Positions 5,243 to 23,072 of a stretch of 64,000 bases of DNA are shown piece after piece. Numbering within the stretch: position 1 is the stretch's first letter; every line of letters starts with the position of its first letter. A model generated the notes under the pieces. The model saw nothing but the letters and a program-made list of their open reading frames with translations, was not told the DNA's origin and did not search any database. A program made the translations under genes and the position numbers. Source of the stretch: Candidatus Adlerbacteria bacterium (GTDB taxonomy: Bacteria > Patescibacteriota > Minisyncoccia > Phycocordibacterales > SBAW01); contig DAIDHJ010000001.1 of the NCBI GenBank assembly GCA_027451965.1, forward strand, positions 251,276 to 315,275, given 5' to 3'.

Positions 5243-5385
5243 GAGTTCCCATTTCTCCTTAGGTAGATTCCAAAGTAACGATCCAAAAATAATCTAGCAT
5301 AAATTATATTTTATGTCAATGTTTTCCTGATGAAGGAATAGCAATTTGCAGGTGTATCATAAAAGGGGTGATTATTGATTAATCT

Positions 5386-5793
5386 TTGTATATGGCATTA
5401 ACATATTTTCTTGCTCAAGTTATCGGATACTATTTCATTGCTGTGGCGTTGGTGCTTTTGTTCCGTAAGGATATGTTTATCGGCGCGGTTCAAGAAGTGT
5501 ATAAGAGCCGATCCTTTACGCTTGTTGGGGGATTAACCGCTCTGCTCTTGGGATTACTGATGGTGCTCTCTCACAATTATTGGAACGCTGGACATTTGGC
5601 CTTGGTCGTCACTGTTATAGGATGGCTCGCACTCATTAAAGGACTCGTGTTGTTATTTGCTCCCCAAGCACTGTCGAGAGCGGTGCATATGTGGCGTATC
5701 GCACAGCTTTCATATTTGTATGTGATTATCTTTCTCATTATCGGTATATATCTGGTGCATGGCGGTACGACTCATTTGGGTATTCTGGGATAA
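5386..5793 (+). CDS. integral membrane protein (4 predicted TM helices)
   Basis: Four hydrophobic segments. Followed by a strong terminator. Confidence 0.5.
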   Translation: MYMALTYFLAQVIGYYFIAVALVLLFRKDMFIGAVQEVYKSRSFTLVGGLTALLLGLLMVLSHNYWNAGHLALVVTVIGWLALIKGLVLLFAPQALSRAVHMWRIAQLSYLYVIIFLIIGIYLVHGGTTHLGILG

Positions 5794-7953: not shown

Positions 7954-9705
7954 TTAGTACTGTTTGTTTGCATGTGGTGCAAAAATGGGCCACACGTGAT
8001 CGGTCAGGCGATACCATCCTGCTACGCTGAGGAATCGATCACTCGGCATTTCAATGCTGCCAAGTTGTAGCCCTTGCACGTCGTTGGGTACACTATACAC
8101 GAAATCGGGCGTATAGAGAAATAGGGCGGGGATATCGTTCTGCAATTGTGTTTGTAGCTGCTGCTCCAGTTGCAGTTGTATTTGCAGATCACTGGTCTGT
8201 CGCAATTGCGTAAGAATCTTATCCGCAGTCGGATTTGCATACATGGCTATGTTGAGTCCGGGATCATTGCGTTCCGTCGAACTCCAATAGGCGTAGAGAT
8301 CCGGTTCGCGTCCGATGATTTCTCCAAAAAGCAGCGCATCATATGCACGCGGTCGAATCACGTTTTGAGCAAGGTCTCCCTGATTGAACACTTGTACTGA
8401 CACCTGGGCACCTAGCGTACTCCAGGTACTGCTCAAATACTGTGCGGCAGCGCGCAATTCAGGCGTATCTCCTGTTGCCAGTGAGAAGGAGAGCGTTTGT
8501 GTTTTTGCATGTTTTCCAGAACCGCTGGTTTTTTGCAGTATGCCGTTCGGACCCGGTTGCCATCCGTCTTTCGCAAGGAGTGTCTGAGCGGCGGCAAGGG
8601 TAGTCGTGGAGAAGGTACTGGTATCTACATCGCTTGGCAGCGGACCGTTAATCGCCACTCCATATCCTTTCAAGACCTGTGTTATCAAATCTTTTTTGTT
8701 AATGACCATAGAAAGTGCTTCGCGTACCGTTTTGTCTTGGAGTACCGGCGCATGTGCTTGATTGAAAAATACTCCGTAGATGCGGTTGAGTGGTGCGGAT
8801 ACCACGGGCGCATTGCCGATTTTCGAAAGATTTTCAGGAGAAAGCCCTCCGGCAGCATTGATGGCGCCGGTGCGCAGCGCCGCTTCGACCGCGGATTCGC
8901 TTGGATAGAAAGAGAAGGTGATAGAAGAGAGATATGGCCGTCCAAGTGCATAGTAATTGGACGCGCTGAGTGTATATGCCGTTGGTACGCCATCAGCACC
9001 GCGGCTGATGCTGCTCACGGTAAACGGTCCTGAACCGATTGGATTAATGTTGAGAGTGCTGAAAGGAAAATCTTGATCGCTCACATTCGCCCATAGGTGT
9101 TCCGGCAGAATACCCATGGTGAGGTTGTCGATGAACGGTGCGTATGGCTGTTTGAGAGTGAACTGCACGGTTCGCTCGTCTATTTTCTGCACTGTGACAC
9201 CGGCCCAGTTTGCCTGCAATGGACTTTTGAGCGCCGAATCCTGTGTTTTTTGAATAGTGAATATGACATCGTCGGCAGTAACCGGGGTGCCATCGCTGAA
9301 GACATCGTTGGGACGCAGCGTTACGGTATAGGTAAGACCGTCAGGAGAAACGGTGTACGACTGCGCCAGGTCGGGAACATACGTACCGCTTGGTGTGGCG
9401 CGCAGCAATCCTGAGTAAACCAAGGAGGTCAAATCATGATCAGAATCTGAGATGGCGAGCACGGGATTGATAAACCGTGGCGCGCCGATCACTCCTTCTG
9501 TCAGAGAGCTGCCGTATGCAGGAATGGTCACCAAGGTTGCCTGATCGGCAAAGTAGAGCAGAAGTAGAGAACTGAGAATGCATAGTCCTGCAAAGACACC
9601 AAACAGAAAACGGCCGCCGAGCGAAAAGGATCGGAGAGTGTCTTCTACAACACTAGTAAAAAAGAGATGAATCGGCCGATAGACCGTGCGCCAAAGATTA
9701 CGCAT
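7954..9705 (-). CDS. ABC transporter substrate-binding protein, family 5 (oligopeptide/nickel type), membrane-anchored
   Basis: N-terminal TM anchor, then an SBP_bac_5-like region (PDLAQSYTVSPDGLTYTVTLRPNDVFSDGTPVTADDV). About 580 aa, typical of OppA/DppA-like proteins. Confidence 0.7.
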   Translation of the reverse strand: MRNLWRTVYRPIHLFFTSVVEDTLRSFSLGGRFLFGVFAGLCILSSLLLLYFADQATLVTIPAYGSSLTEGVIGAPRFINPVLAISDSDHDLTSLVYSGLLRATPSGTYVPDLAQSYTVSPDGLTYTVTLRPNDVFSDGTPVTADDVIFTIQKTQDSALKSPLQANWAGVTVQKIDERTVQFTLKQPYAPFIDNLTMGILPEHLWANVSDQDFPFSTLNINPIGSGPFTVSSISRGADGVPTAYTLSASNYYALGRPYLSSITFSFYPSESAVEAALRTGAINAAGGLSPENLSKIGNAPVVSAPLNRIYGVFFNQAHAPVLQDKTVREALSMVINKKDLITQVLKGYGVAINGPLPSDVDTSTFSTTTLAAAQTLLAKDGWQPGPNGILQKTSGSGKHAKTQTLSFSLATGDTPELRAAAQYLSSTWSTLGAQVSVQVFNQGDLAQNVIRPRAYDALLFGEIIGREPDLYAYWSSTERNDPGLNIAMYANPTADKILTQLRQTSDLQIQLQLEQQLQTQLQNDIPALFLYTPDFVYSVPNDVQGLQLGSIEMPSDRFLSVAGWYRLTDHVWPIFAPHANKQY

Positions 9706-9723
9706 GTACAGAGAGTATGAAGG

Positions 9724-9954
9724 TTAGTGGATGATGAGCGCTACGAATGATGACGCAGCGAAGAGTACTCCCACCACGATGGTGGCGTATAGGAGCTGTT
9801 TCTCAAGTCCGCGACGAGTATGGTATGCCGCGCTGAAGTTGTCTCCGCCGAGCGCGCCGCCGAGCGATGCTCCCGTCTGTTGCAGCAGCACGCAGACGAT
9901 GAGTATCACGGCTAGCACTACTTGTATGTACGGGAGTATCCCGCCCAAGGTCAT
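9724..9954 (-). CDS. secG: preprotein translocase subunit SecG
   Basis: 76 aa with two TM helices and the SecG signature LLQQTGASLGGALGG...RRGLEK. Confidence 0.7.
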   Translation of the reverse strand: MTLGGILPYIQVVLAVILIVCVLLQQTGASLGGALGGDNFSAAYHTRRGLEKQLLYATIVVGVLFAASSFVALIIH

Positions 9955-9987
9955 TGCCGGTTACTTTAGCATAGGACAGACTCCAGT

Positions 9988-10020
9988 GCAAAAGAGAAAG
10001 GGCGCCTCATCGAGGCGCCC
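9988..10020 (-). terminator. terminator-like hairpin upstream of secG (minus strand)
   Basis: gggcgcctc / gaggcgccc with an atc loop. On the minus strand it is followed by tttctctttt. No convincing gene lies upstream of it on the minus strand. Confidence 0.45.
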
Positions 10021-10352
10021 GAAGGGTGTTGAGCAGGAGACTGTGCAAGACAGGATTCCTGCAAATGCTGTCAGTAGATGAAAAATCGCTTATTTGCGGG
10101 TGAGGGACGAATGCTGCACGCGCGTGTCCTTTCCGGCACTGTGCTGCATGGTGTTTTGGTTGCGGTGTTCCTCGCGCACGCTGCTCGTCTGCGGCGTCTT
10201 CTCGGCGTTCATCTATTGTTTTGTCTCCCAATGTAAAGAACGAAAAAGCACCCTCGAGTCGTCTGAGCCGAAAAACAGGTTCCTCAGAGAGGAACCATCT
10301 CAAACGATCGAGAATGCTCTGAAAAGATACCTTTCTACATTTTTTCTGTCAA

Positions 10353-10363
10353 CTTGGTATAGT
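10353..10363 (+). promoter_or_regulatory. extended -10 promoter element (TGgTATAGT)
   Basis: ttggtatagt lies about 43 nt upstream of the ATG at 10406. A GGAGG RBS sits at 10393-10397. Confidence 0.3.
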
Positions 10364-10405
10364 GCCTCACAGACGTTTCATCTACAGCAGAAGGAGGTTT
10401 GCTCA

Positions 10406-11302
10406 ATGAAGTCCCTACATCCCGATTTATCGGCGGTTTCATCCGCTTCTGCTGCGGAACAGATGCGGCAATGCGGATATCTCGAAGTTCCGATCAATGG
10501 AAAAAATCTGTGCTTTCACAAAAACCGGGCGCTCAGCCAATTCAGTCAACTTATTGCTGACCCGGAGCGCGACAAGTTTATCTATCGAGGAACCGATGAA
10601 GACTACGACATTGGCTTCTATGATCGAAATGGGGAAGCAAAAGAAACACTCACGCCGCAGGAACAGGCTGAACATCGCAATCAGTATGATCGGAAAGAAT
10701 ACTTCCATGCTGATGCGGACACATATCAGCTGCTTAAACGGCAGGGCGCTCCCGTGGAGCGCTACCCCGGACTGTTTCAAGCATGTCGGCAGTTCAACAT
10801 CCAAGCATCCAGTATCGCCAAAGTACTTGCCCAAACGCTGGATCACGGTTCAGACGGAGCCTATCCCGGTTCATTCCGTCAGAAGATTGAAGATCCGCGC
10901 AGCCGGGTGGTAACGCGTATCATGCGGTATAAGCCGCAAGAAGAAGGAGTCTTCATTGCGGCACTGCACCGCGATAAGGCAGCAGTGACTGTGCATTGGT
11001 TTTCGACACACGCGGGACTCGTCTTTTATGATGCACAGGCGCAACCAGTGGTGCTTCAGGACACTGATCCAAACACCGCGCTCGTGTTTCTGGGAAGAAA
11101 GGCGTGGGCGGCGATGCGCGGCACATACGGGAAGGGAAGTGTGCATGGCGCCCACAATGCCGTTGCCTTGCAGGGCAGAGAACATCGGTTTGTTATCGTG
11201 ACGTTCGTACACTGCTTCTTGGACGACGATGACAAAGCATGGGCTTCAGCACATGAAGGAGACATCAAGATTCGTGATGCTGAATTTCCTTCACTCAACT
11301 AA
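10406..11302 (+). CDS. 2OG-Fe(II) oxygenase superfamily protein (putative)
   Basis: HxD...H facial-triad candidates (ALHRDKAAVTVH ... SVHGAHN) and a downstream RFV. Strong GGAGG RBS 8 nt upstream of the ATG at 10406. The in-frame upstream stretch (10094-10405) is Cys-rich and lacks an RBS, so it was rejected as coding. Confidence 0.45.
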   Translation: MKSLHPDLSAVSSASAAEQMRQCGYLEVPINGKNLCFHKNRALSQFSQLIADPERDKFIYRGTDEDYDIGFYDRNGEAKETLTPQEQAEHRNQYDRKEYFHADADTYQLLKRQGAPVERYPGLFQACRQFNIQASSIAKVLAQTLDHGSDGAYPGSFRQKIEDPRSRVVTRIMRYKPQEEGVFIAALHRDKAAVTVHWFSTHAGLVFYDAQAQPVVLQDTDPNTALVFLGRKAWAAMRGTYGKGSVHGAHNAVALQGREHRFVIVTFVHCFLDDDDKAWASAHEGDIKIRDAEFPSLN

Positions 11303-11307
11303 TAATA

Positions 11308-11337
11308 AAAGCCTCTCCGTCATACGGAGAGGCTTTC
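11308..11337. terminator. bidirectional intrinsic terminator
   Basis: aaagcctctccg / cggagaggcttt with a tcata loop. Flanked by an A-tract (aataataaaa) and a T-tract (ctttta). It sits between convergent genes. Confidence 0.55.
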
Positions 11338-11339
11338 TT

Positions 11340-11603
11340 TTATCGTTGTTTTTGTTTGGGAGAAGTTCTACGGCTGCGCGTAGCGCGTGCTTGCTTGACG
11401 CGGGCAAAATCATCGAGCGCTTCTTGGAATTCAGTGAACGGTTTACCCGTACGCACCAGTTCCTGTTTTGCCCTTTCGCATTGTTCCTCAGTCAATTTGA
11501 TCGATGCTGTTTCTGTTCCTTGATACTGAAACAGTGCTTTTGTAGCGTCACGATCAAGTCCATGGTAGGTCATGGGTTCCGCACCTTTTATCAATCTGCC
11601 CAT
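11340..11603 (-). CDS. hypothetical small protein (87 aa) with basic C-terminal tail
   Basis: ATG at 11603 has a perfect AAGGAG RBS. MGRLIKGAEPMTYHGLDRD...RATRSRRTSPKQKQR. The longer ORF-track version (to 11846) overlaps the neighbouring + gene and lacks an RBS. Confidence 0.45.
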   Translation of the reverse strand: MGRLIKGAEPMTYHGLDRDATKALFQYQGTETASIKLTEEQCERAKQELVRTGKPFTEFQEALDDFARVKQARATRSRRTSPKQKQR

Positions 11604-11735
11604 TGCTTTCTCCTTCAGAAAGAACGTTTCTTCATAATCCAACCATATGTTCTTCAAATAACAAGGTAATGCTTGACTGCGTACGAAAAAAGCTTTATGT
11701 TTCTTTCTCATACGCTCTTTGTTGTAGGAGAAACG

Positions 11736-12146
11736 ATGCAGATTGATCTGGAGAAGCCTCTTATCTATGTCATCCATAACAGTCCGGAGGACAGCATTAT
11801 CGGTCATGTGTCTTCTGTGCCGCAGCGATGCAAGCAGAAAAAGCATTTTCGGCCCTTTCTCGCGCAGTTATGCAGCGAGAAACTGGGCATACCCATTCAT
11901 GACATCCACGTATCATTCCAAGAAGGCGGGGTGTTTGTAGAGCTTCGTGAGCTCTCCAATATTCGCATGCATCAGCTTCGGGATACTATCCATTACAAAG
12001 GACTCAAGGCGGCGCAACAGAATCCGCTTCTCGTGAACGCATCGCACTTTCCGGCATTTGTACTTCAGCTCAGTCGCAATCTCTCTGCCGTTCTCTCCGC
12101 AAAATTCCGCGGTATGGAAACTAATAGCATCATCAAGATCGCATAA
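11736..12146 (+). CDS. hypothetical protein (136 aa)
   Basis: AGGAG RBS 6 nt upstream of the ATG at 11736. Has its own terminator. No family recognised. Confidence 0.45.
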   Translation: MQIDLEKPLIYVIHNSPEDSIIGHVSSVPQRCKQKKHFRPFLAQLCSEKLGIPIHDIHVSFQEGGVFVELRELSNIRMHQLRDTIHYKGLKAAQQNPLLVNASHFPAFVLQLSRNLSAVLSAKFRGMETNSIIKIA

Positions 12147-12151
12147 ACAAC

Positions 12152-12181
12152 AAAACGGCACCTTCTGGTGCCGTTTTACTT
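12152..12181 (+). terminator. intrinsic terminator
   Basis: aaaacggcacc / ggtgccgtttt with a ttct loop, followed by a T-run. Confidence 0.55.
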
Positions 12182-12186
12182 TGACT

Positions 12187-12225
12187 ATAAAAAAAGAAAA
12201 AACCGCTTGATGATCGTCAAGCGGT
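12187..12225 (-). terminator. intrinsic terminator (minus strand) overlapping the stop of 12217..12615
   Basis: accgcttga / tcaagcggt with a 6-nt loop. On the minus strand it is followed by ttttttcttttttt. Confidence 0.5.
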
Positions 12226-12615
12226 ATTCATTATTACTCCCAATGCCTTCAACTTGGCGATCGAGTGTTCAGTTTTTTTCAAATAGTTCTGTTTATACGG
12301 CGGACGTATTTTCATTTCTTCCATATCTCTCTTATCCCTCTCGAAGTCCTCATCTGCGTCGTTGATAAGAACTGAAAGGTGACCCGTTTCCTCTTTGATG
12401 GGTTCAAAGTGCTCATCGAAGAATGTCACCGTTTCTCCAAGAGAGATTTTGCTGCATCGATACGGTTCATACCGTACGGCGGCATCGATACGAATTTTAT
12501 GCACTAGCACCCTCACATTTCCAGAAACGGGTGATTGTGTGACCATGATCCGATAAAAGTGCTCCACATCTTCAGCAATATAAAGATGGCCAAAGAATTG
12601 CACACCACTATCCAT
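12217..12615 (-). CDS. hypothetical protein (132 aa)
   Basis: ORF with its own terminator. Acidic C-terminal half. No family recognised. Confidence 0.45.
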   Translation of the reverse strand: MDSGVQFFGHLYIAEDVEHFYRIMVTQSPVSGNVRVLVHKIRIDAAVRYEPYRCSKISLGETVTFFDEHFEPIKEETGHLSVLINDADEDFERDKRDMEEMKIRPPYKQNYLKKTEHSIAKLKALGVIMNTA

Positions 12616-12712
12616 CCTCTTTCTCCTTCTTTTCGCCGAATTGTTCTTACAACACGATACAGTAATTTAGTCAATTAGTCAAGAAAACCATTGTAATAAA
12701 AGCTCTTTTTTC

Positions 12713-12742
12713 TTGACAATACCTTGTTTCATTCACTATACT
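12713..12742 (+). promoter_or_regulatory. sigma70-like promoter (TTGACA-N18-TATACT) upstream of groES
   Basis: Exact -35 and near-consensus -10 hexamers about 80 nt upstream of the groES start. Confidence 0.45.
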
Positions 12743-12824
12743 TTCCTCGAATCGTGTGCATTTCCTAGGGTTTTTGTAGCATTGCACAGCAATTATTGAA
12801 TAGTTAATTTGTCACTTTTTCACT

Positions 12825-14823
<1,999 letters not shown>

Positions 14824-14847
14824 GCCATTGTGCTATAGTTACACCCT

Positions 14848-15408
14848 ATGATTGCCCTCTATATAGCGCTCGGAGTTGTCGTCGTTCTGCTCTTGTGGCT
14901 CGCCAGCATGTACAACCACTTTGTGGTTCTGGTACAGCGCACCAAAGAAGCATGGGCGGATATCGACGTGCAGCTCAAGCGCCGCTACGACCTTATTCCT
15001 AATCTCGTCGAAACGGTAAAAGGATACGCCACGCACGAGCGGGAAGTGTTCGAGAACGTTTCGCAAGCGCGTGCTGCGGCTATGGGCGCTTCTGCACCCG
15101 CAGAAAAAGGCGCTGCAGAAAATCAGCTCTCGCAAGCGCTCAAGAGCATCTTTGCGGTTGCGGAAGCGTATCCGGAACTCAAAGCAAATCAGAACTTTCT
15201 AGAGCTTCAGAAGCAACTCGAAGATACGGAAAACAAAATCCAGGCGGCACGCCGTTTCTACAATGGCAATGTGCGCGATCTCAACACCGCGCTGCAAAGT
15301 TTTCCGGGCAATATGATCGCCGGTACGTTCCACTTCACCCAGCAGGAATTCTTCCAGCTTGATCAGGCGGATGCGGCTGCGCGTGAACCGGTGAAAGTAA
15401 GCTTTTAA
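14848..15408 (+). CDS. lemA: LemA family protein
   Basis: N-terminal TM helix and a LemA-type helical domain (QRTKEAWADIDVQLKRRYDLIPNLVETVKGYATHEREVFENV). Confidence 0.8.
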   Translation: MIALYIALGVVVVLLLWLASMYNHFVVLVQRTKEAWADIDVQLKRRYDLIPNLVETVKGYATHEREVFENVSQARAAAMGASAPAEKGAAENQLSQALKSIFAVAEAYPELKANQNFLELQKQLEDTENKIQAARRFYNGNVRDLNTALQSFPGNMIAGTFHFTQQEFFQLDQADAAAREPVKVSF

Positions 15409-15437
15409 ATAGTTTTTCCGTCTGTTCTATTGTCTGT

Positions 15438-16331
15438 ATGGCTACGCTCTATACGCATAAAGATGAAAATGTCGCCAAGACATGGGTGCTCATGGCTGTG
15501 TTTTTGTCTGTGGTCATAGCCATTGGCTGGGCGATATCCTGGTACTACAACAATCCCGTCATTTTGGTGTTTGCAGTTGCGTTTGCGCTTCTCACCAATA
15601 TCTGGAGCTATTGGAATTCTGACAAGGTGGTCATAGCGCTCTCCGGCGCCCGTCCGGCAGACAAGGCGCAGTATGAAGAGTTGCATCAGGTAGTAGAGAA
15701 TCTGGCAATCACCGCGGGCCTTCCCAAACCGAATATCTATATCATCAACGATCCGGCGCCCAACGCCTTTGCGACCGGCCGAGACGCGAAACACTCTGCA
15801 GTCGCAGTGACCAGCGGGTTGCTTTCCATGATGAATCGCAATGAATTGGAAGGAGTGATTGCGCACGAACTCTCGCACGTCGGCAACCGGGATATTCTCA
15901 TTTCCACCATCGCAGTGGTATTGGTCGGATTCGTGTCGCTTGCATCGAACTTTTTCCTGCGCTCCTTGTGGTGGGGAGGGGACGGGGATCGCAATGAAGG
16001 AGGCAATCCGTTGCTGGCGATTCTTGCGATTGCGTTTGTGGTGCTTGCGCCTATCTTTGCCATGCTGCTGCAATTGGCGGTATCGCGCAAGCGTGAGTTT
16101 CTCGCCGATGCGTCCGGAGCGCTGCTTACGCGCTACCCAGAAGGATTGGCGAGCGCGCTGCGTAAGATTGGTGCATATGAACGCCCGATGCAGAAAGCAA
16201 ACACGGCAACCGCGCATTTGTATATTTCCAATCCCTTCGGACCGGGTGCCGCCCGCAGCTTCATCATGCGTTTATTCTCCACACATCCGCCAATTGAAGA
16301 GCGCATCAAAGCTCTTATGGGGAATGACTAG
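15438..16331 (+). CDS. htpX: zinc metalloprotease HtpX (M48 family)
   Basis: HELSHV zinc-binding motif, multiple TM segments and a C-terminal EERIKAL. Forms the conserved lemA-htpX pair. Confidence 0.85.
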   Translation: MATLYTHKDENVAKTWVLMAVFLSVVIAIGWAISWYYNNPVILVFAVAFALLTNIWSYWNSDKVVIALSGARPADKAQYEELHQVVENLAITAGLPKPNIYIINDPAPNAFATGRDAKHSAVAVTSGLLSMMNRNELEGVIAHELSHVGNRDILISTIAVVLVGFVSLASNFFLRSLWWGGDGDRNEGGNPLLAILAIAFVVLAPIFAMLLQLAVSRKREFLADASGALLTRYPEGLASALRKIGAYERPMQKANTATAHLYISNPFGPGAARSFIMRLFSTHPPIEERIKALMGND

Positions 16332-16358
16332 CTTTTTTGTGTTATATTCGTTTCGTTA

Positions 16359-16443
16359 GGAGGCGTCGCATAGCGGTCTAGTGCACACGCTTGGAAAGCG
16401 TGCAGGGGGCAACCTCTCGCGAGTTCGAATCTCGCCGCCTCCG
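16359..16443 (+). tRNA. tRNA-Ser (GGA)
   Basis: Acceptor stem GGAGGCG/CGCCTCC, 3-bp D-stem, anticodon arm CACGC-TTGGAAA-GCGTG, long variable arm, T-arm GCGAG-TTCGAAT-CTCGC. 85 nt. Confidence 0.8.
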
Positions 16444-16538
16444 CCCGAAGACTTTTGTATCGGACAGACCTGAGAGCTCTTGTTTTGTTAATCTCTAGAA
16501 AAGTGCCATAATCATGGCGTCTTTCCCTTTCCCAGTAT

Positions 16539-16727
16539 ATGGACAACGATGCATTTAAAAATCCTACAGACGCCGCTTTTGAGGAGTTGGTTCGACTGTT
16601 AGAGATGGACGAGGAATTGAACTCGGTCAAGGAGGCTATTTCTGCCGATATTCGTGCGGAGAATCCCGAATCTCTCGAAAATCTTAAACGGGCTCTTGTG
16701 TCGGATAATGAAAATCACAAACCTTAA
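16539..16727 (+). CDS. small acidic hypothetical protein (62 aa)
   Basis: ORF immediately upstream of, and overlapping by 20 nt, the ATPase start at 16708. Highly acidic (DEELNSVKEAISADIRAENPESLENL). No SD. Could be a spurious leader ORF. Confidence 0.3.
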   Translation: MDNDAFKNPTDAAFEELVRLLEMDEELNSVKEAISADIRAENPESLENLKRALVSDNENHKP

Positions 16728-19113
16728 AATCAGCAGCGTTCGAGGGATTCCGCGCTCTTGGCCCGACCTCGCCGTCAACGACAGAGGATTGATTATTTTC
16801 GGACCGAATGGTGTCGGCAAAAGTTCTATTGTTGATTCTTTTGAATATGTTTTGACGCAGAAATCGACTTTGTTCCCCGCAGATCGTCTCGGAGTATCGT
16901 GGGAGACTGCCTCTCCTCATGTGAATGACGGAGATGGGCACATCGTTTTGCAGTTGCGGGAAGGTGGGACTGAATATGAGATAGACACGCAAAACAACAA
17001 TCCCTCTTACTCTGCATCTGTAACTGCATGGCTTGAAGCGGCAGCTAAATCAAATTTCGTGCTTCGACGGCATATGTTGCTCAGATTTATCAGTGAAGCA
17101 CCACGCAATCGATACGAGCTATTAGCCCCGTTTTGCAATCTCGGATCTTTCCAGTCTTTTGAAAGATCCCTTAAGACATGGTCGGACAACTTAGATGCGG
17201 AGCTCGCAGCGGAGACCCAGGCGATGGGTGCCAGAGAACAGCGATTTAGGCAAATCTTCAAAATATCGACGAGCGTCTCGCCGGATGAGAAGAGCTTGCA
17301 TGCTGAGCTCAATGCCACTCTTGCGAAGCTTCAGTTATCATCTTGCGATACCCCAGATGATCTCAAGAATAGACAAAAAGAAATCTCAGACGCATTAGGT
17401 GGCAGCGACCGCGCGGGACGTTTGGCCGCTTTGGGCGGCTTAAAAAACGAGATACAGCGGCTCGGTCGTCTGGAAGACCACACTCCTGCCTTAAGTGCAC
17501 TGAGATCCTCGCTTCAAGAGCTTGAGAAAGAAATGGCTGAGCGAAAGCAGGATGTGCTTGTTGATCTTCTTGCCGAGGGCAAAAGAGCCATCGAGTCAGC
17601 AGGGCTCACGTCTTGCCCTCTATGCGAACAGTCTATCGACCAAACCGCAGTCCTTGCCAGAATTGAGGAGCGAATAAAGTCCGATGAGCACATAACCGCA
17701 TTATTGGAGACAGTTGCCACTCGCCGTCGAGCGTTAATGCGCCCTTTGTCTGATCTTTCAAACGCTGCAGCTTCCGTGAAAAAGAGTTGGGAGACCCAGA
17801 TGACTGACCCTTTCCCGGAAGAATATTCAAAAGCAAACAACCGGATTAAAGATATGCTCGCTCTAGTTGAGGACAAGGAATCTACAAGTGCTCAATTTGA
17901 CGATGCTATCGCGCAATCTGCGGCATTGGTAACCAGCCATGAAAAGATTGCGGAAATGGTGGGACAACTCATTAATGCGGAAGGAGGAGGTGAGCGGCGA
18001 GGATTTTTTCAGGATGCTTCCCTCCAGATCGAAACTTTATTGAGCGAGTGGCCGGTTCAGGTTCTTGCGTTGAAGTCCCAGCAAATCCTCCAAGCGCGTA
18101 AGAAAATTGTGGACCGAGTTTACGCGCACGCTATCGAAGCTCGCAAATCGACTGTCCAAACCACGTTTAATTCTGTTTCTGGTACCGCCAATAAGTTTTA
18201 TGAGGCCATACACCCCAGCGAGAATATCGCCACTTCCAAACTCTCCGTGCGACAGGTAGGCCAGGGGTCGGTAAACCTCACAACCGAATTTTATGGAAGC
18301 GAGGAAAATCCTTTGTTGCATTTCAGTGAATCGCATCTGGATACCCTAGGATTATCTTACTTTCTTGCGCTACGGAAACATGAGTCGCAGAATGATCCAC
18401 TTTTTAAAGTCCTCATACTGGATGATGTTATGCATTCGGTGGACGCGGATCATCGCTCTCGTGTCGCGGGGGTTATCAGAGACGAGTTTAGTGATCATCA
18501 AATAATTATCACTACGCACGACCAACACTTCTATGATGCTCTGCGACGCATTCTGGGCAATGGAGGCTTTAATTTTCAAGCTATTTCGGGGTGGGACATT
18601 ATGCGCGGCCCACTTATCGGTGATCCCTCCACTGATCTCGATCTTGTAACAGACGCAAGCAAGTACACAGATCATCGCGCTGAGGATTTATCCGCAGCGG
18701 GAGGGCGCTTCTTTGAGTGGCTGCTAAAGCAGTTGGACGAGCGCCTCCAAATCTTGGTACCTGCTCGCTTCGAGAAAAGACATGACATAGGAAACCTGTG
18801 GCCACCTCTCTGTTCTAAGCTTAAAGCGCATGTGGGATTTTCTAATGCGCATCCGACTATTGCTACTGACCTTGAGAATTCTACATGGGTCAGAAATGCC
18901 TGCGGTGCGCATGATAATGAAACATCCGCTAATGTAACTCTTGCGGAAGCGCGTGAATTTGTCACCGCGCTGAGTGCACTCTACAGTGCGTCACACTGTG
19001 ATGTGTGCGGAAAGCTAATCAATAAAAAAACAAATGGGGACTGGGAGTGCGAGTGCGGCACTTTGTCATTCAAATTTCGTCCGATTCAGACGTCGATTGT
19101 GATAACCCCCTGA
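16708..19113 (+). CDS. Rad50/SbcC-like ABC ATPase with zinc hook and C-terminal zinc-ribbon domain; RloC-family anticodon-nuclease candidate
   Basis: Walker A IIFGPNGVGKSS near the N-terminus and a roughly 500-aa helical/coiled-coil region with a central SCPLCEQ (CPxC hook-like) motif at nt 17614-17625. It also has a degenerate signature, Walker B VLILDD, an H-loop IIITTHD, and a 190-aa C-terminal extension with CDVCG...CEC. Alternative ATG at 16654 adds 18 aa. Confidence 0.6.
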   Translation: MKITNLKISSVRGIPRSWPDLAVNDRGLIIFGPNGVGKSSIVDSFEYVLTQKSTLFPADRLGVSWETASPHVNDGDGHIVLQLREGGTEYEIDTQNNNPSYSASVTAWLEAAAKSNFVLRRHMLLRFISEAPRNRYELLAPFCNLGSFQSFERSLKTWSDNLDAELAAETQAMGAREQRFRQIFKISTSVSPDEKSLHAELNATLAKLQLSSCDTPDDLKNRQKEISDALGGSDRAGRLAALGGLKNEIQRLGRLEDHTPALSALRSSLQELEKEMAERKQDVLVDLLAEGKRAIESAGLTSCPLCEQSIDQTAVLARIEERIKSDEHITALLETVATRRRALMRPLSDLSNAAASVKKSWETQMTDPFPEEYSKANNRIKDMLALVEDKESTSAQFDDAIAQSAALVTSHEKIAEMVGQLINAEGGGERRGFFQDASLQIETLLSEWPVQVLALKSQQILQARKKIVDRVYAHAIEARKSTVQTTFNSVSGTANKFYEAIHPSENIATSKLSVRQVGQGSVNLTTEFYGSEENPLLHFSESHLDTLGLSYFLALRKHESQNDPLFKVLILDDVMHSVDADHRSRVAGVIRDEFSDHQIIITTHDQHFYDALRRILGNGGFNFQAISGWDIMRGPLIGDPSTDLDLVTDASKYTDHRAEDLSAAGGRFFEWLLKQLDERLQILVPARFEKRHDIGNLWPPLCSKLKAHVGFSNAHPTIATDLENSTWVRNACGAHDNETSANVTLAEAREFVTALSALYSASHCDVCGKLINKKTNGDWECECGTLSFKFRPIQTSIVITP

Positions 19114-19361
19114 GCGAGTTTTAGTTTCGATTTAAAGCATCCCATCAACTCTCGCTTCTCCTCGTTGGTACCCTCTTTGAGTATGTACTTCGCGTAAGTG
19201 CGCAGGTCGATGTCCTCGTGCGTAGCGTCCGCTTTCGAGAAGTCGAGTACTGTGCGCTGGAAAACCCTTATAGGGCTTGGAGTCTTGCGTACTAACTGTG
19301 ATATGCTCGCAGAAAGATTAAGAATATTATTTAATCTATACAAAAATATATTTTCATTTTT

Positions 19362-19763
19362 ATGAAAACATACGAACAATATCGTGAATACAGAAAACCC
19401 TCATGGGCGCCTCCAGCACGGCTTTTTGGTCCCGTATGGACCGTACTCTATATCCTTATCGCTATATCGTTTTGTTATGTCGGTTATCTATGGATTATTG
19501 GTCGTGTACCAATGCAAGTTGCATTACCGTTTATACTCAACCTCGTATTCAATTTTCTATTTACTACCGTTCAGTTTAAATGGCGGAATTTTAAAGCAGC
19601 TTTCATTGATATAATCTTTGTTTTAGGCACTCTTATATGGGCGATGATATCGATATGGCCAATAGAGCAGTGGGTAGTGTATATCAATATTCCATATGTT
19701 ATATGGGTATCGTTTGCAACGGTGTTGCAATTTAGTGTGACAAGGATGAACTCTCAGGTATAA
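19362..19763 (+). CDS. TspO/MBR-like membrane protein (short form)
   Basis: FGPVWTVLYILIAIS and LPFILNLVFNFLFTTVQF resemble the TspO tryptophan-rich sensory protein helices. At 133 aa it is shorter than canonical TspO (about 155-160 aa). Confidence 0.45.
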   Translation: MKTYEQYREYRKPSWAPPARLFGPVWTVLYILIAISFCYVGYLWIIGRVPMQVALPFILNLVFNFLFTTVQFKWRNFKAAFIDIIFVLGTLIWAMISIWPIEQWVVYINIPYVIWVSFATVLQFSVTRMNSQV

Positions 19764-19770
19764 GCAAAGT

Positions 19771-20280
19771 ATGAGGAAAATTTGTGTTAACGATAAAATG
19801 CAACACGGTTACCAATATGAATTGGTAGAGCCGCCCGGAAGACATTTTGATCCTCGATTTAAACCAGAACTTACACCAAAACAAATGCTTACCCTCGGTG
19901 TGTTTGGTGGTGTGTATATGCGTGATTGCGTTAAAGAGTTTCCCAAGGAGTGGTTCTTGAAAGCTAAATTTCAGAAACAAGGTTCTTATGACCATGATCC
20001 TAAGCTCAATTTCTTCGGTGTTAATGCTAGCCAATCACTCTCAGTGTGGCGCAAGAAAAATTGGATTCATAAAGATGATCCGCGCGGCTGGTTTCAGTGG
20101 TACTGCCGATATTACATGGGGCGCCGTGGACCAGATGATGATCGGCAGATAAAACGCTGGATGGCGATTTATCGCCACATTGCTCAAATCAAAAAACATT
20201 GTCGTACTGGTGATTTCAATTGTCATCGGAAACAGAGACAAGCCCTACTTCATTGGGCGTATGACAGTAGAAAACTGTAA
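19771..20280 (+). CDS. conserved hypothetical protein, Trp/Arg-rich
   Basis: 169-aa ORF with GVFGGVYMRDC and WFQWYCRYYMGRRGPDDDRQIKRW motifs. No family confidently recognised. Confidence 0.45.
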   Translation: MRKICVNDKMQHGYQYELVEPPGRHFDPRFKPELTPKQMLTLGVFGGVYMRDCVKEFPKEWFLKAKFQKQGSYDHDPKLNFFGVNASQSLSVWRKKNWIHKDDPRGWFQWYCRYYMGRRGPDDDRQIKRWMAIYRHIAQIKKHCRTGDFNCHRKQRQALLHWAYDSRKL

Positions 20281-20399
20281 ATTGTCTAAAATCTATTTAT
20301 TTCAGGTTACCTATCCCAAGCTCTCTTTCGGGAGTTATGCACACCTCTAGCAATAGGGTACTTGTAAGCATCATTATGCTGCTTTAAGATGTATAGGGT

Positions 20400-21158
20400 A
20401 TGAAAAATACTCCAGAAAATAAAGGGTATATAGGAGCGATACGCCTCCTACGGGATAAGCCAGAGTGGGCACCTATTATTGCCGCAGCCGTTGAAAGTGC
20501 AAAAACGATCAAGGGCGGATTTGCGGGTTCCTGGGTGCTCGATCTTGCAAAGCAAAAAGGAGTTTCCTGGATACCAGGCCTTCGTACGCTCGTCGCATAT
20601 GGCATTTTACAAAAAGAAGGAGCATCGACTCGCGGCGGTCGTCGAGCGTACTACACCATGCCCGATGTCGCAGGGGTAGAACAAGCACTCAATGAAATAC
20701 AAGTACCAAAGACCTTTACTCCGTATGCGGGATATCAAATAGGTGACTCCGGTGTCATACAAGCAACAAAAGTGCGCATACCATTTTTTGCGAACCTCGC
20801 AGCATGCGGAGGACCGAATATGAGTGAAGCGGTAGTCGATGATTACATCGATGTCGATACTCGTTTAGCACGTCCAGGACATCAGTACTATTTGGTACGC
20901 GCTGACGGAGATTCTATGGATCTTGCTGGCATACATTCAGGAGACTTTGTGCTCGTTCGAGTACAGAACCATGCAGATGTAGGACAGAAAGTAGTTGCAT
21001 CTCTTGCCGATGGAGTAACGATCAAGGAATTGCAGTACGGGGGAGATCACATCATTCTCATGCCTCGCTCGAGCAATACGGAACATAAACCAATGGTATT
21101 AAAAGATAACGTAGCGATTCAGGGTGTGGTAATCGGTACCATCCCTGGATTCAAATAA
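20400..21158 (+). CDS. LexA/CI-like S24 peptidase-family transcriptional repressor
   Basis: C-terminal S24 domain with an Ala-Gly cleavage-site-like LAACGGP, the Ser motif ADGDSM, and a Lys in PMVLKDNVAIQGVVIGT. The N-terminal 90 aa is a non-canonical probable winged-helix domain. Confidence 0.65.
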   Translation: MKNTPENKGYIGAIRLLRDKPEWAPIIAAAVESAKTIKGGFAGSWVLDLAKQKGVSWIPGLRTLVAYGILQKEGASTRGGRRAYYTMPDVAGVEQALNEIQVPKTFTPYAGYQIGDSGVIQATKVRIPFFANLAACGGPNMSEAVVDDYIDVDTRLARPGHQYYLVRADGDSMDLAGIHSGDFVLVRVQNHADVGQKVVASLADGVTIKELQYGGDHIILMPRSSNTEHKPMVLKDNVAIQGVVIGTIPGFK

Positions 21159-21378
21159 ATATATGTATCACCATATAGAAGAATCAATCATGCTGGGCGA
21201 GAATCTCCGTCGTAAGAAGATGCTGCAGGAGGTAATAAAAATGCGCAAAAAGGTCATTGATCGATTCAGCGTCATGTACGTAGGCTAAATAGCCTTGTAA
21301 TTCAAATGCTTTTTCCTTCCACAAGAATATACTGCTAGATCCTAATGGTATATCCTACCTGTGCTACGCTATATACAT

Positions 21379-22014
21379 ATGAAACGAATACTATATATAC
21401 TAAGCGCGCTCAGTATTACCCTTATGCCGGTCGGATTTGCATTTGCACAGGAGTGGGGAACACCACCACCTCCTCATATGCAACCCAATACCTCCAATGA
21501 ACAGCGGCAAGGACCCGGACCAGCAATGATGGGCGAACCGCAAAATACCCAGCAAGGTGAATACATGATGGGCGGACAACCAGGAGATGTTCAGCAAGGA
21601 GAGAACAGAATGCCACCTCCGCCACCGCAGTACTTGAACCAAGGTTCTTCAACAGACGCCAGCTCCACTCCAGGGAGGTATGGTATGCCCTGGATGCGAG
21701 GCATAAAGCGAGGCATTGAAGCACATTTCGGTACCACCACACCGCCAGGATTCTTCATGCATGCCAGCAGCTCAGACGCAGTTGGCAGCAGCTCACCCGA
21801 TCATCGCGGATGGCTTCCTCCTGTGCCGGGATTCTTGCAATGGCTTTTCTTCGGCAAGCAGAGTTCCACCACACAATCGCAACAGCAGCTTCCGCCACCT
21901 CCACAAAACCAACCAGAAAATAATACCAGTTCCTCAACACAGCCACAGCAACAATTACCCGGCCCAGCATCGTTCTGGAATGGATTCTTTGGACGCCTAA
22001 AAACCTTATTCTAA
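21379..22014 (+). CDS. secreted Pro/Gln/Gly-rich low-complexity protein
   Basis: Signal peptide MKRILYILSALSITLMPVGFAFAQE, then PPPP/QQ/MMG low-complexity repeats. ATG at 21379 preferred over 21361. Confidence 0.5.
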   Translation: MKRILYILSALSITLMPVGFAFAQEWGTPPPPHMQPNTSNEQRQGPGPAMMGEPQNTQQGEYMMGGQPGDVQQGENRMPPPPPQYLNQGSSTDASSTPGRYGMPWMRGIKRGIEAHFGTTTPPGFFMHASSSDAVGSSSPDHRGWLPPVPGFLQWLFFGKQSSTTQSQQQLPPPPQNQPENNTSSSTQPQQQLPGPASFWNGFFGRLKTLF

Positions 22015-22100
22015 GCATCTTTTGACCGCTACTCTATTCTGTTCTAGAGTGCCCTGCAGAGTAGTACACTAGCTATACCTTCCAAGAAAGGAGCTCATAT

Positions 22101-23072
22101 ATGGACTGGACACAACCGGCATACAATCGATTGCCCGACCCGCTGTTTGAGTTTCCCGTCGATGATTTTAGCTTGCCAGTCATTGAGCTGCCTGCTGAAA
22201 TATTTCTTTCGTCGCCACTCCACGGCAAGCAGATACGTATTTACGCCTTGCTCGGATTCATGGCGCCCCCGGGAAACATCAAGCGTATTCCCGCGGGATA
22301 CACGATCGAGAAACTCATCGAGCGGGGCGAGCTCAAACCAGGAGACGGAGTGATTGATTCTTCTTCGGGGAACTGGGGAGTTTCTGTCGCGTTCTACGGA
22401 AAGCGGTATAACCTCCGGGTGATCATTGTCGTTTCAGACAAGGTCCCTGAAGGGAAACTTCTTCCGATTCGGCGGCAAGGAGCAACCATCCTCAAAGAGT
22501 CAGAAGCGGTCAAAGCGCTCGGTCTGGAGAACTCTCCGGGTTGTATGGAACTTGCTCGTCTCTATGCTGAAAAGCATGGATTGAATTATCTCAATCAGTA
22601 CGGCAATCCGCTCAACCCTGAAAGTTACGAAGTGCTGGTAGCGCCTCACCTGTACGAAGGAACCAAGGGAAACATAAGCCTTTCGGTTTCTGCGACGGGT
22701 ACGAGAGGAACACAACTCGGGTTGGGACGGTACTTCAAGAAACAAAACAAAACCTTCCAAATCGTTTCCACCTTCCCGTATCTGGGACAAGAGATCGAGG
22801 GTACTCGAGACGAACGCCGGCTCAAAGAAGTGAATCAGCCGGATATTGCTGACTATCGAGATCCGATCGATCATCGCGTCGCACGGGCAGCCAGCGCTTT
22901 TCTCAACGAAAAGGGCATCCCCGCCGGACCAAGCTCCGGCGCCGCGCTCGGCTCACTCGAGCATTATCTGCTCCAGCGTGTGGTGGCGGGAACGCTTGAT
23001 GAACTGCGCAGTCCGGATGGCACCATTGGCGCCATCCTCACCTTCGCTGATACGCTCTATCCGTACAGTTAG
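22101..23072 (+). CDS. PLP-dependent enzyme, cysteine synthase/CBS (fold type II) family
   Basis: SSGNWG (compare CysK SGNTG) and GPSSGAA glycine-rich loops. A candidate PLP lysine lies in NIKRIP. Confidence 0.55.
   Translation: MDWTQPAYNRLPDPLFEFPVDDFSLPVIELPAEIFLSSPLHGKQIRIYALLGFMAPPGNIKRIPAGYTIEKLIERGELKPGDGVIDSSSGNWGVSVAFYGKRYNLRVIIVVSDKVPEGKLLPIRRQGATILKESEAVKALGLENSPGCMELARLYAEKHGLNYLNQYGNPLNPESYEVLVAPHLYEGTKGNISLSVSATGTRGTQLGLGRYFKKQNKTFQIVSTFPYLGQEIEGTRDERRLKEVNQPDIADYRDPIDHRVARAASAFLNEKGIPAGPSSGAALGSLEHYLLQRVVAGTLDELRSPDGTIGAILTFADTLYPYS

Follow-up and report, generated by a model that had tools for sequence, protein, structure and literature searches.

What is encoded by the two overlapping genes that follow a tRNA-Ser(GGA) gene in the genome of Candidatus Adlerbacteria bacterium, and to which known systems are their products related? 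The genes lie in a stretch of 64,000 nucleotides (contig DAIDHJ010000001.1 of GenBank assembly GCA_027451965.1, positions 251,276 to 315,275 of the forward strand), which is hereafter called the window and whose own numbering is used below. The larger gene (16708-19113, plus strand) encodes an 801-residue ATP-binding cassette (ABC) ATPase resembling structural maintenance of chromosomes (SMC) proteins, Rad50 and LmuB and carrying a HEPN-like domain and a zinc ribbon, and the smaller one (16539-16727, plus strand) encodes an acidic protein of 62 residues. ABC/SMC-type ATPases are the sensors of the Lamassu, Wadjet, Gabija, PARIS, Septu and RloC/PrrC anti-phage systems, and the coupling of sensing to the effector is an active question for systems of this kind. 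An initial annotation had interpreted the large protein either as an RloC-like tRNA-cutting enzyme or as some other defence ATPase of the SMC-like kind to which an effector is fused, and the second half of that interpretation is the better one. We consider it fairly probable that the two genes form a mobile cassette in which a hooked Rad50/LmuB-type ATPase, carrying a HEPN-type domain and a zinc ribbon in cis and accompanied by a coupled small partner, acts as a DNA-sensing ribonuclease (RNase) defence module. The module is probably an undescribed relative of the phage-defence systems that sense DNA and cut RNA.

Results

The C-terminal domain of the large protein looks HEPN-like

Judged from its sequence and its AlphaFold2 model, the C-terminal domain of the large protein looks HEPN-like and of the RNase type. 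The domain is all-alpha (residues 641-762; 18628-18993, plus strand) and contains E670-x3-K674 (18715-18729, plus strand) followed by R729-N-x4-H735 (18892-18912, plus strand). Catalytic HEPN domains are marked by an Rx4-6H motif, a polar residue (N, D or H) after the arginine and an upstream acidic residue that typically stands in Ex3[KR] (PMC3710099); here R729-N-x4-H735 provides both the spacing and the polar residue, and E670 is the upstream acidic residue. Over the approximately 166 proteins that carry the domain, these positions were almost completely conserved (E670 in 166/166, R729 in 165/167, N730 in 159/166 and H735 in 166/166), and the sequence E-W-L-L-K held in the close family, with the K/R position being variable in the wider carrier set. 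In the model, R729-N-A-C-G-A-H735 covers the end of the helix 726-730 and the next loop, and E670-W-L-L-K674 lies within the long helix 658-679. An arginine at a helix end, a histidine in the next loop and a glutamate in an earlier long helix constitute the published HEPN arrangement. Thus, the HEPN assignment is suggested by an R-N-x4-H motif and an upstream glutamate that are essentially invariant and placed as published for HEPN.

The domain is followed by a terminal zinc ribbon, CDVC-x13-CEC (residues 764-783; 18997-19056, plus strand), which forms beta strands in the model and whose cysteines were retained in most domain carriers (C764 in 163/166, C767 in 164/166, C781 in 162/164 and C783 in 124/164). 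The ribbon had been recognized in the initial annotation, where its spacing was misread as x12. At the sequence level, neither Pfam, run on 22 members, nor a profile search of PDB sequences gave more than zinc-ribbon noise for the C-terminal domain, and a Foldseek search of the PDB with the C-terminal model gave no match at E < 1. The structures named for this domain, as a bare list that does not give their relation to it, are AF0298 (2hsb), the AbiA HEPN domain, 4nqf, TTHA0636 (1wwp), ST0689 (1wol), Roquin, Csm6, TT1696, the sacsin HEPN domain and three HEPN toxins of MNT-HEPN pairs.

In one sub-clade, consisting of L051, L059 (a Phaeobacter plasmid) and L060 (a Halobacterium plasmid), Φ-N-K-x-V-H replaces R-N-x4-H. 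The arginine is lost and the motif is shortened by one residue in its spacing, and the histidine, the ribbon, the hook and the partner are kept; by sequence, the active site would have been either inactivated or altered.

A hook-bearing ABC ATPase of the Rad50/LmuB type

In the rest of the large protein, a long helical arm separates the two lobes of an ABC head. The Walker A motif GPNGVGKSS (residues 32-40; 16801-16827), in which G32, N34, G35, G37, K38, S39 and S40 are invariant, is followed by the arm (17143-18210), which according to the AlphaFold2 secondary structure runs up through residues 146-298 and down through residues 312-501 with several breaks. The CPLC zinc-hook motif (residues 303-306; 17614-17625) is situated in the modelled turn 299-311 between the arm halves. 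The C-terminal ABC lobe (18211-18627), recognized by Pfam SMC_N and AAA_21 and by its conserved motifs, contains the signature-like SESHLD (18325-18342), the Walker B motif VLILDD (18409-18426) with an aspartate in the usual glutamate position, the D-loop HSVD (18433-18444) and the H-loop TTHD (18511-18522), all of these features being on the plus strand. The ATPase motifs, C303, P304, C306 and three ribbon cysteines were invariant in 25/25 family members of 38-56 % identity, and the hook, in the form CP[LVI]C near residue 300, was found in every member of about 800 residues in a set of 174 proteins; these motifs are therefore not chance features. Walker A, the CPLC motif, the degenerate signature, Walker B and the H-loop all lie where the initial annotation had placed them, and the architecture that it proposed, with a split ABC head, a hook-bearing helical arm, a C-terminal effector-type domain and a ribbon, was borne out by the conservation and by the AlphaFold2 model (mean predicted local distance difference test score 83.8), in which the head is split and the long arm carries CPLC at the helix turn. 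The secondary-structure layout and the Foldseek matches suggest that the arm would pack as an antiparallel coiled coil, and the CPxC hook would be expected to join one protomer to another by a shared zinc ion.

Pfam matched the large protein to SMC_N, AAA_23 and AAA_21. In PADLOC, LmuB was by far the best family (E = 2e-27 and 6e-26), with the reservation that the PADLOC LmuB models have no curated cut-off and that Rad50 and SMC proteins score similarly by structure. Indeed, the Foldseek search with the full model matched Rad50 and SMC heads together with four LmuB structures (9hqx, 9hqu, 9uxh and 9ux7), the closest solved relative by sequence was Rad50, and NCBIfam gave weak matches to RecF and to an archaeal SMC-related protein. 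The last two results, together with the Gene Ontology term 'double-strand break repair' that RefSeq adds to plasmid homologues and the existence of non-catalytic HEPN-fold domains, could point to a DNA-repair or chromosome-maintenance protein of the SMC/Rad50/RecN kind, in which the C-terminal domain and the ribbon would merely bind nucleic acid. Such a role seems highly improbable to us. The R-N-x4-H motif with its glutamate, which is conserved almost absolutely, is the catalytic signature of HEPN RNases, the window has no gene for an Mre11/SbcD-type nuclease partner, and the family is distributed sporadically, differs in presence or absence between near-identical genomes, includes pseudogenes and occupies mobile-element locations. 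The protein resembles Rad50-Mre11 and SbcCD in the layout of head, arm and zinc hook but differs from them in the added HEPN-like domain and ribbon, in its accessory distribution and in the lack of an Mre11/SbcD partner: no gene for a nuclease of this type was found in the neighbourhood in the ORF (open reading frame) list or by the Pfam scan. In this respect the initial annotation was right, but it had also excluded an adjacent recombination gene or integrase, and a serine-recombinase remnant does adjoin the module (see below).

Likeness to RloC and PrrC

RloC was found by BLAST from PrrC, and its definition combines ABC motifs like those of PrrC, an inserted coiled coil with CXXC and, in the C-terminal part, the triad Arg-X3-Glu-X36-52-His, which in GkaRloC consists of R692/E696/H737 (PMC2610378; see also Davidov & Kaufmann 2008; Klaiman et al. 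2012). Its zinc hook, together with its DNA-dependent ATPase, switches its nuclease. The protein of the window resembles RloC in being a single polypeptide of about 800 residues with the ABC head split by a predicted coiled coil, with a CxxC hook near residue 300 (CPLC at residues 303-306, compared with C291 in GkaRloC) and with a C-terminal HEPN-class RNase-type domain bearing Arg, Glu and His; both are stand-alone and laterally transferred. Moreover, several relatives carry precomputed AAA_13 matches. Nevertheless, that it should be a true RloC orthologue, belonging to the PrrC/RloC (AAA_13) family as an anticodon nuclease that excises the wobble nucleotide, is very unlikely. The AAA_13 match of the large protein reached 27.2 bits, below the cut-off of 36, and covered only profile positions 239-578 of 713, with the nuclease part unaligned, and the PADLOC PrrC model matched only the Walker B region (residues 565-616, E = 9e-4), far behind LmuB. 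The RloC triad R-x3-E-x36-52-H was absent from the window protein and from the conserved columns, and occurred at scattered non-homologous positions in 46 of the 135 full-length proteins. The conserved set is instead R667-x2-E670 … R729-x5-H735. The Arg-Glu/Asp-His triad for which the initial annotation had proposed to look is therefore represented by the conserved E670, R729 and H735, but with the order E-x3-K … R-N-x4-H and not with the spacing of RloC. The extra terminal zinc ribbon, the greater closeness of the ATPase to LmuB and the obligatory small upstream partner are further differences, RloC being described without a partner gene.

PrrC likewise combines an ABC ATPase N-domain with a C-terminal HEPN-class RNase domain, but it has no coiled-coil or hook insert, is tied to a type Ic restriction-modification locus and is activated by the phage Stp peptide. 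Since a published survey classes the nuclease domains of RloC and PrrC as divergent HEPN, the likeness to RloC is one of superfamily and architecture: from its sequence, the large protein works like RloC on paper and is not a member of the RloC family. The ABC-HEPN proteins typified by ERFG_01251 (Anantharaman et al. 2013), compared here by description only, are described with a HEPN/TOPRIM-NTD1 domain and with no mention of a hook, a ribbon or a partner. In the literature searched, which did not cover the 2020 ABC-ATPase classification and the 2013 ERFG_01251 alignment, there was no description of an LmuB-, SMC- or Rad50-like ATPase fused to HEPN and accompanied by a small partner.

A conserved small partner and the comparison with Lamassu

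The acidic ORF that the initial annotation had noticed between the tRNA gene and the ATPase gene has a predicted isoelectric point of 4.3 and overlaps the start of the large gene by 20 nucleotides. The open frame of the large gene spans 16654-19113, and the start codon was placed at ATG 16708 as its equivalent ("MKITNLK") is the start in all 24 aligned relatives; hence the protein has 801 residues and not 819, the upper value of the 800-819 residues given initially. As had been suspected, the small ORF co-occurs with the large gene: a homologous ORF of 58-92 residues abuts or overlaps the start of the large gene in 24 independent loci (the window included), and in every close relative examined it either ends 4-29 nucleotides inside the large gene or abuts its start. 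It also accompanies relatives of only 23-30 % identity, including those on haloarchaeal and Bacteroidota plasmids, where RefSeq names it 'hypothetical protein'. The members of the partner family are mostly acidic, 60-80 residues long, and share roughly the consensus P-[ST]-D-x-A-[LF]-x-x-[LF]-x-x-R-[IV]-x-x-D-x-x-[LI]-P … D-L … P-x-x-[LF]-x-x-L-K-A-A-L, which is followed by an acidic tail. This conservation indicates that the gene is a real conserved partner, with predicted translational coupling to the large gene. A profile search with the partner collected 31 small hypothetical proteins, none of them with a Pfam domain, and searches of Pfam, PHROGs, PADLOC and PDB chains for its identity were all empty or marginal. 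In a conjugative element with a type IV secretion system (L003/L004, 7298-8020), a ChaC/gamma-glutamylcyclotransferase-like domain bears the partner at its C-terminus, giving a fused protein of 240 residues in total, and this fusion still overlaps the start of the large gene by 20 nucleotides.

A small upstream gene overlapping a large one is the classic antitoxin-first layout, HEPN domains are common toxins of toxin-antitoxin systems, and plasmids, a conjugative element and islands flanked by integrases carry copies of the module beside other toxin-antitoxin pairs. The module could accordingly be mainly an addiction module that stabilises mobile elements, with the partner as a labile antitoxin directly neutralising the HEPN toxin and with the ATPase arm in a secondary role; this could coexist with defence. 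We regard it as rather unlikely because of the company that the partner keeps, the sample being small. The partner travels with the hooked long forms; upstream of the short hook-less carriers L042/L043 and L010 no partner ORF was found (three loci checked), and in L056 a hooked relative without the C-terminal HEPN domain nevertheless has the small upstream ORF. These few cases hint that the partner works with the arm or the head rather than with the nuclease.

In Lamassu (LmuA-LmuC-LmuB, or DdmABC), the gene of the small LmuC directly precedes lmuB. LmuC touches the arm near the hook and takes part in DNA binding, and LmuB together with LmuC senses DNA ends and releases the effector. The window module has likewise an SMC/Rad50-like ATPase that scores best with LmuB (E = 2e-27) and has one CxxC hook and a kinked arm, and its small gene lies just upstream of the ATPase gene. 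The family furthermore falls into a long (about 800 residues, hooked) and a short (about 580 residues, hook-less) class, as LmuB does; the short class (L042/L043, L010, P0089-P0174) keeps the HEPN-like domain and the ribbon. In contrast to Lamassu, there is no separate LmuA, the effector-type domain being fused to the C-terminus of the ATPase and HEPN-like (HEPN is not mentioned in the Lamassu survey), and the partner has only 60-80 residues. As Lamassu clades that have lost components are known, as LmuB is the best-scoring named family and as the small gene occupies the lmuC position, the module might also be a canonical Lamassu operon that has degraded by losing its separate LmuA effector gene. 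This we hold to be extremely unlikely: no LmuA-like gene adjoins the module in the window or in about 20 related loci, the two-gene layout with the fused C-terminal domain is the conserved state in Bacteria and Archaea, and no PADLOC LmuC model or PDB chain matches the partner despite its position.

The cassette is absent from the same site in a close relative

The initial annotation had supposed an accessory insertion, and a relative of about 97 % identity, L061, proved to lack the gene pair at this site. Window positions 13708-16485 (GroEL, LemA, HtpX, tRNA-Ser and 40 nucleotides beyond it) align to L061 at 97.8 % and positions 19093-22852 (the recombinase relic, TspO, a 169-residue ORF, the LexA-like gene and onward) at 96.2 %, and between the breakpoints nothing aligns. 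The strain-specific cassette of the window (16486-19092, plus strand; 2,607 nucleotides) holds a promoter-like site, the small ORF and the large gene except for its last 7 codons, which fall in the flank common to L061. The promoter-like site, TTGTTA-16-tgCATAAT (16485-16512, plus strand; consensus match only), is located 27 nucleotides 5' of the small ORF. On the L061 side, the slot is filled by 3,271 nucleotides encoding a P-type ATPase and a 198-residue protein. The tRNA-Ser(GGA) gene (16359-16445, plus strand; ARAGORN; Rfam tRNA, 54 bits) is also present in L061 and forms the left edge of the variable slot.

In L061, direct repeats of 36 nucleotides at 2742-2777 and 5378-5413 (reverse complement) flank a 2.6-kb P-type cation ATPase cassette. 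The repeats begin 3 nucleotides after tRNA-Ser(GGA), and the first copy equals window positions 16449-16484 (plus strand), AGACTTTTGTATCGGACAGACCTGAGAGCTCTTGTT, which according to blastn and the junction alignment is a single copy in the window. Judged by the sequence, the L061 repeats are an att-like duplication. Because L061 carries other cargo between such repeats, the slot after tRNA-Ser is an integration hot spot and the module its strain-specific cargo. A direct repeat of the tRNA 3' end, which had been anticipated near 19114-19361, was not found at the right border; the relevant repeat is the 36-nucleotide one after the tRNA, duplicated only in L061. The GC content of the whole L061 insert was 0.55 versus 0.49 in the flanks, and that of the window cassette (0.484) equalled its flanks (0.489), so that its composition carries no signal of foreign origin. 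A 12-nucleotide piece of the att-like sequence (ACCTGAGAGCTC, 16468-16479) recurs inverted and with 92 % complementarity at 19748-19759, at the 3' end of tspO, which may be due to chance. The 198-residue protein of L061 (3802-4398, plus strand) contains L-R-N-A-L-E-H, a textbook Rx4H motif; it had no Pfam match and an hhalign probability of 0.4 % against the HEPN-like domain of the module, and it may be either an unrelated stand-alone HEPN toxin or a protein with the motif by chance.

The region 19114-19361, previously taken for a non-coding spacer of about 250 nucleotides, holds the 3' relic of a serine-recombinase gene (its last approximately 57 codons; 19089-19262, minus strand), which stands tail to tail with the large gene. 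The relic ORF has 96 homologues (P0211-P0306), up to 86 % identical, in Parcubacteria/Minisyncoccia, and its residues 40-96 match, with 75-86 % identity, the very C-terminal end of proteins in which PF13408 (Zn_ribbon_recom) precedes this part, from which the gene was recognized as that of a large serine recombinase. About 96 of the related sequences are short 'tail' proteins of 53-170 residues and 60-86 % identity, and only some of them keep PF13408. The relic and its truncation point are common to the window genome and L061, although the adjacent cargo differs, which suggests that either the cargo was exchanged after the truncation or integration occurred into the 3' end of the recombinase gene itself.

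Distribution and genomic contexts of the family

A word-indexed search returned only 28 close relatives. The exhaustive profile search with the C-terminal domain yielded 985 cluster representatives (of clusters at 50 % identity) at E ≤ 1e-3 and 486 at E ≤ 1e-10, and the domain occurs in Bacteria, in Archaea and on plasmids. There are two size classes, one of about 790-860 residues with the CP[LVI]C hook and one of about 570-600 residues without it. Nearly all members carry R-N-x-x-G-A-H and the CxxC ribbon, and all those tested score as SMC_N/LmuB-like. Plasmids contributed 19 full-length copies, all of them named only 'AAA family ATPase', and complete phage genomes gave no match, with one putative viral contig matching partially.

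In other genomes, the module lies beside an MmeI restriction-modification system with SocA and M78 genes in L001, beside RES-Xre and patatin in L016, in an integrase-bearing island near tRNA-Ser(GCT) with a PIN-MazE pair in L017, inside the type IV secretion element in L003, beside DUF1156/DUF499 genes on the Halobacterium plasmid and directly after tRNA-Thr in L006. Thus, an accessory, defence-like context is indicated by the absence of the pair from the same site in L061, by the adjoining relic, by relatives near restriction-modification, toxin-antitoxin and integrase genes, by the plasmid copies and by the occurrence of decayed copies.

Decayed copies were seen in L009 (10001-10749), L006 (10001-) and L053. 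That of L009, which is another Parcubacteria genome with the copy at a non-syntenic site, consists of residues 1-248 of the large gene with an internal stop together with the small ORF, and those of L006 and L053 have early stops. The distant hooked relative in L056 (4920-7475; 824-851 residues) stops right after the ABC head; its neighbours, assessed by eye, look like ATPases of the HerA and Orc/Cdc6 kinds and a PLD-like protein, so that the locus may be an archaeal conflict locus. In L016, a metagenome-assembled genome of Nisaea, a Metallophos protein (413 residues) and an AAA_23/AAA_27 protein (801 residues) are encoded just downstream of the module (9488-13143) in an SbcCD-like layout. This pair is unrelated to the module and may be a second SMC-type system stacked beside it.

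Other genes around the module

Although the initial annotation had noted a lack of core genes around the pair, its flanks consist of ordinary ones, namely those for GroES/EL, LemA, HtpX, TspO and a LexA-like protein, and no restriction-modification genes are present in the window. The W/Y/R-rich 169-residue ORF (19771-20280, plus strand; 'GWFQWYCRYYMGRRGPDDDRQIKRW') is kept in L061 and had no Pfam, PHROG, PADLOC or NCBIfam match. The LexA-like protein (20400-21158, plus strand; 252 residues), also kept in L061, combines an S24 LexA-type peptidase C-domain with an N-terminal region of about 125 residues. The window carries eleven tRNA genes in 64 kb, and several of its genes have their nearest homologues in Parcubacteria/Minisyncoccia; its source is probably a small genome of the candidate phyla radiation.

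Discussion

The module is best read as a cis-fused, Lamassu-like defence or toxin module. Its anatomy, its conservation, its linkage to the partner and its presence/absence polymorphism were observed directly, whereas we infer its dimerisation through the hook, its RNase activity, its trigger and the role of the partner, and for the way in which these would fit together there are two precedents: RloC couples a hook and a DNA-dependent ATPase to a HEPN-class tRNase, and Lamassu LmuB/LmuC senses DNA ends. In the resting state, the large protein would be a hook-linked dimer held off by the small partner on the arm or the head, and its two HEPN domains would be kept apart or occluded. The heads would then attach to DNA that is foreign or damaged, such as DNA ends or intermediates of replication, and cycle through ATP binding and hydrolysis, and this step would join or free the two HEPN domains. 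In RNases of the HEPN superfamily, the active site is usually a composite one to which both subunits of a dimer contribute. Once paired, the two domains could act as a metal-independent RNase cutting tRNA, mRNA or rRNA, upon which translation would stop and the infection would abort or the cell would go dormant.

Several observations weigh against a defence module working in this way. The aspartate in the Walker B motif replaces the usual catalytic glutamate, and ATP turnover may thus be slow or absent; by sequence, slow hydrolysis would suggest a switch-like rather than a motor-like behaviour. A sub-clade of relatives lacks the arginine of the HEPN motif. No similarity of the partner to LmuC, to Mre11/SbcD or to an antitoxin could be detected, and the neighbourhoods in L005, L018 and the window are plainly housekeeping ones. 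The absence of the family from complete phage genomes, which could be added to this list, is neutral for a role in host defence.

What is already known is the general kind of system, in which an ABC/SMC sensor is combined with a HEPN effector; what is new here is a large unnamed family, its obligatory mini-partner and a design that bridges Lamassu and RloC. The members of this abundant family bear only the annotation 'AAA family ATPase', or even 'EcfA2', and for this reason the catalogues of defence systems presumably miss it. On a more tentative note, the module could be the first known case of an immune-module class, 'cis-fused Lamassu-like', that is widespread and as yet without a name. In this class, the engagement of the heads of a zinc-hook SMC-type DNA sensor would directly control the HEPN RNase that the sensor carries, and the partner of 60-80 residues would serve as a minimal LmuC/Mre11-tail-like clamp on the arm. 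If true, an LmuB-type sensor with its effector in cis and only a partner of this size would be a minimal and tractable system, and the module would link the DNA-end-sensing paradigm of Lamassu with the RNA-cutting paradigm of RloC. The presence/absence pair formed by the window and L061 documents the exchange of cargo at an att-like site in a probable candidate phyla radiation genome. If the cargo is what we think it is, this would mean that abortive-infection cassettes are still being exchanged between ultra-small genomes, at a recombinase hot spot linked to a tRNA gene.

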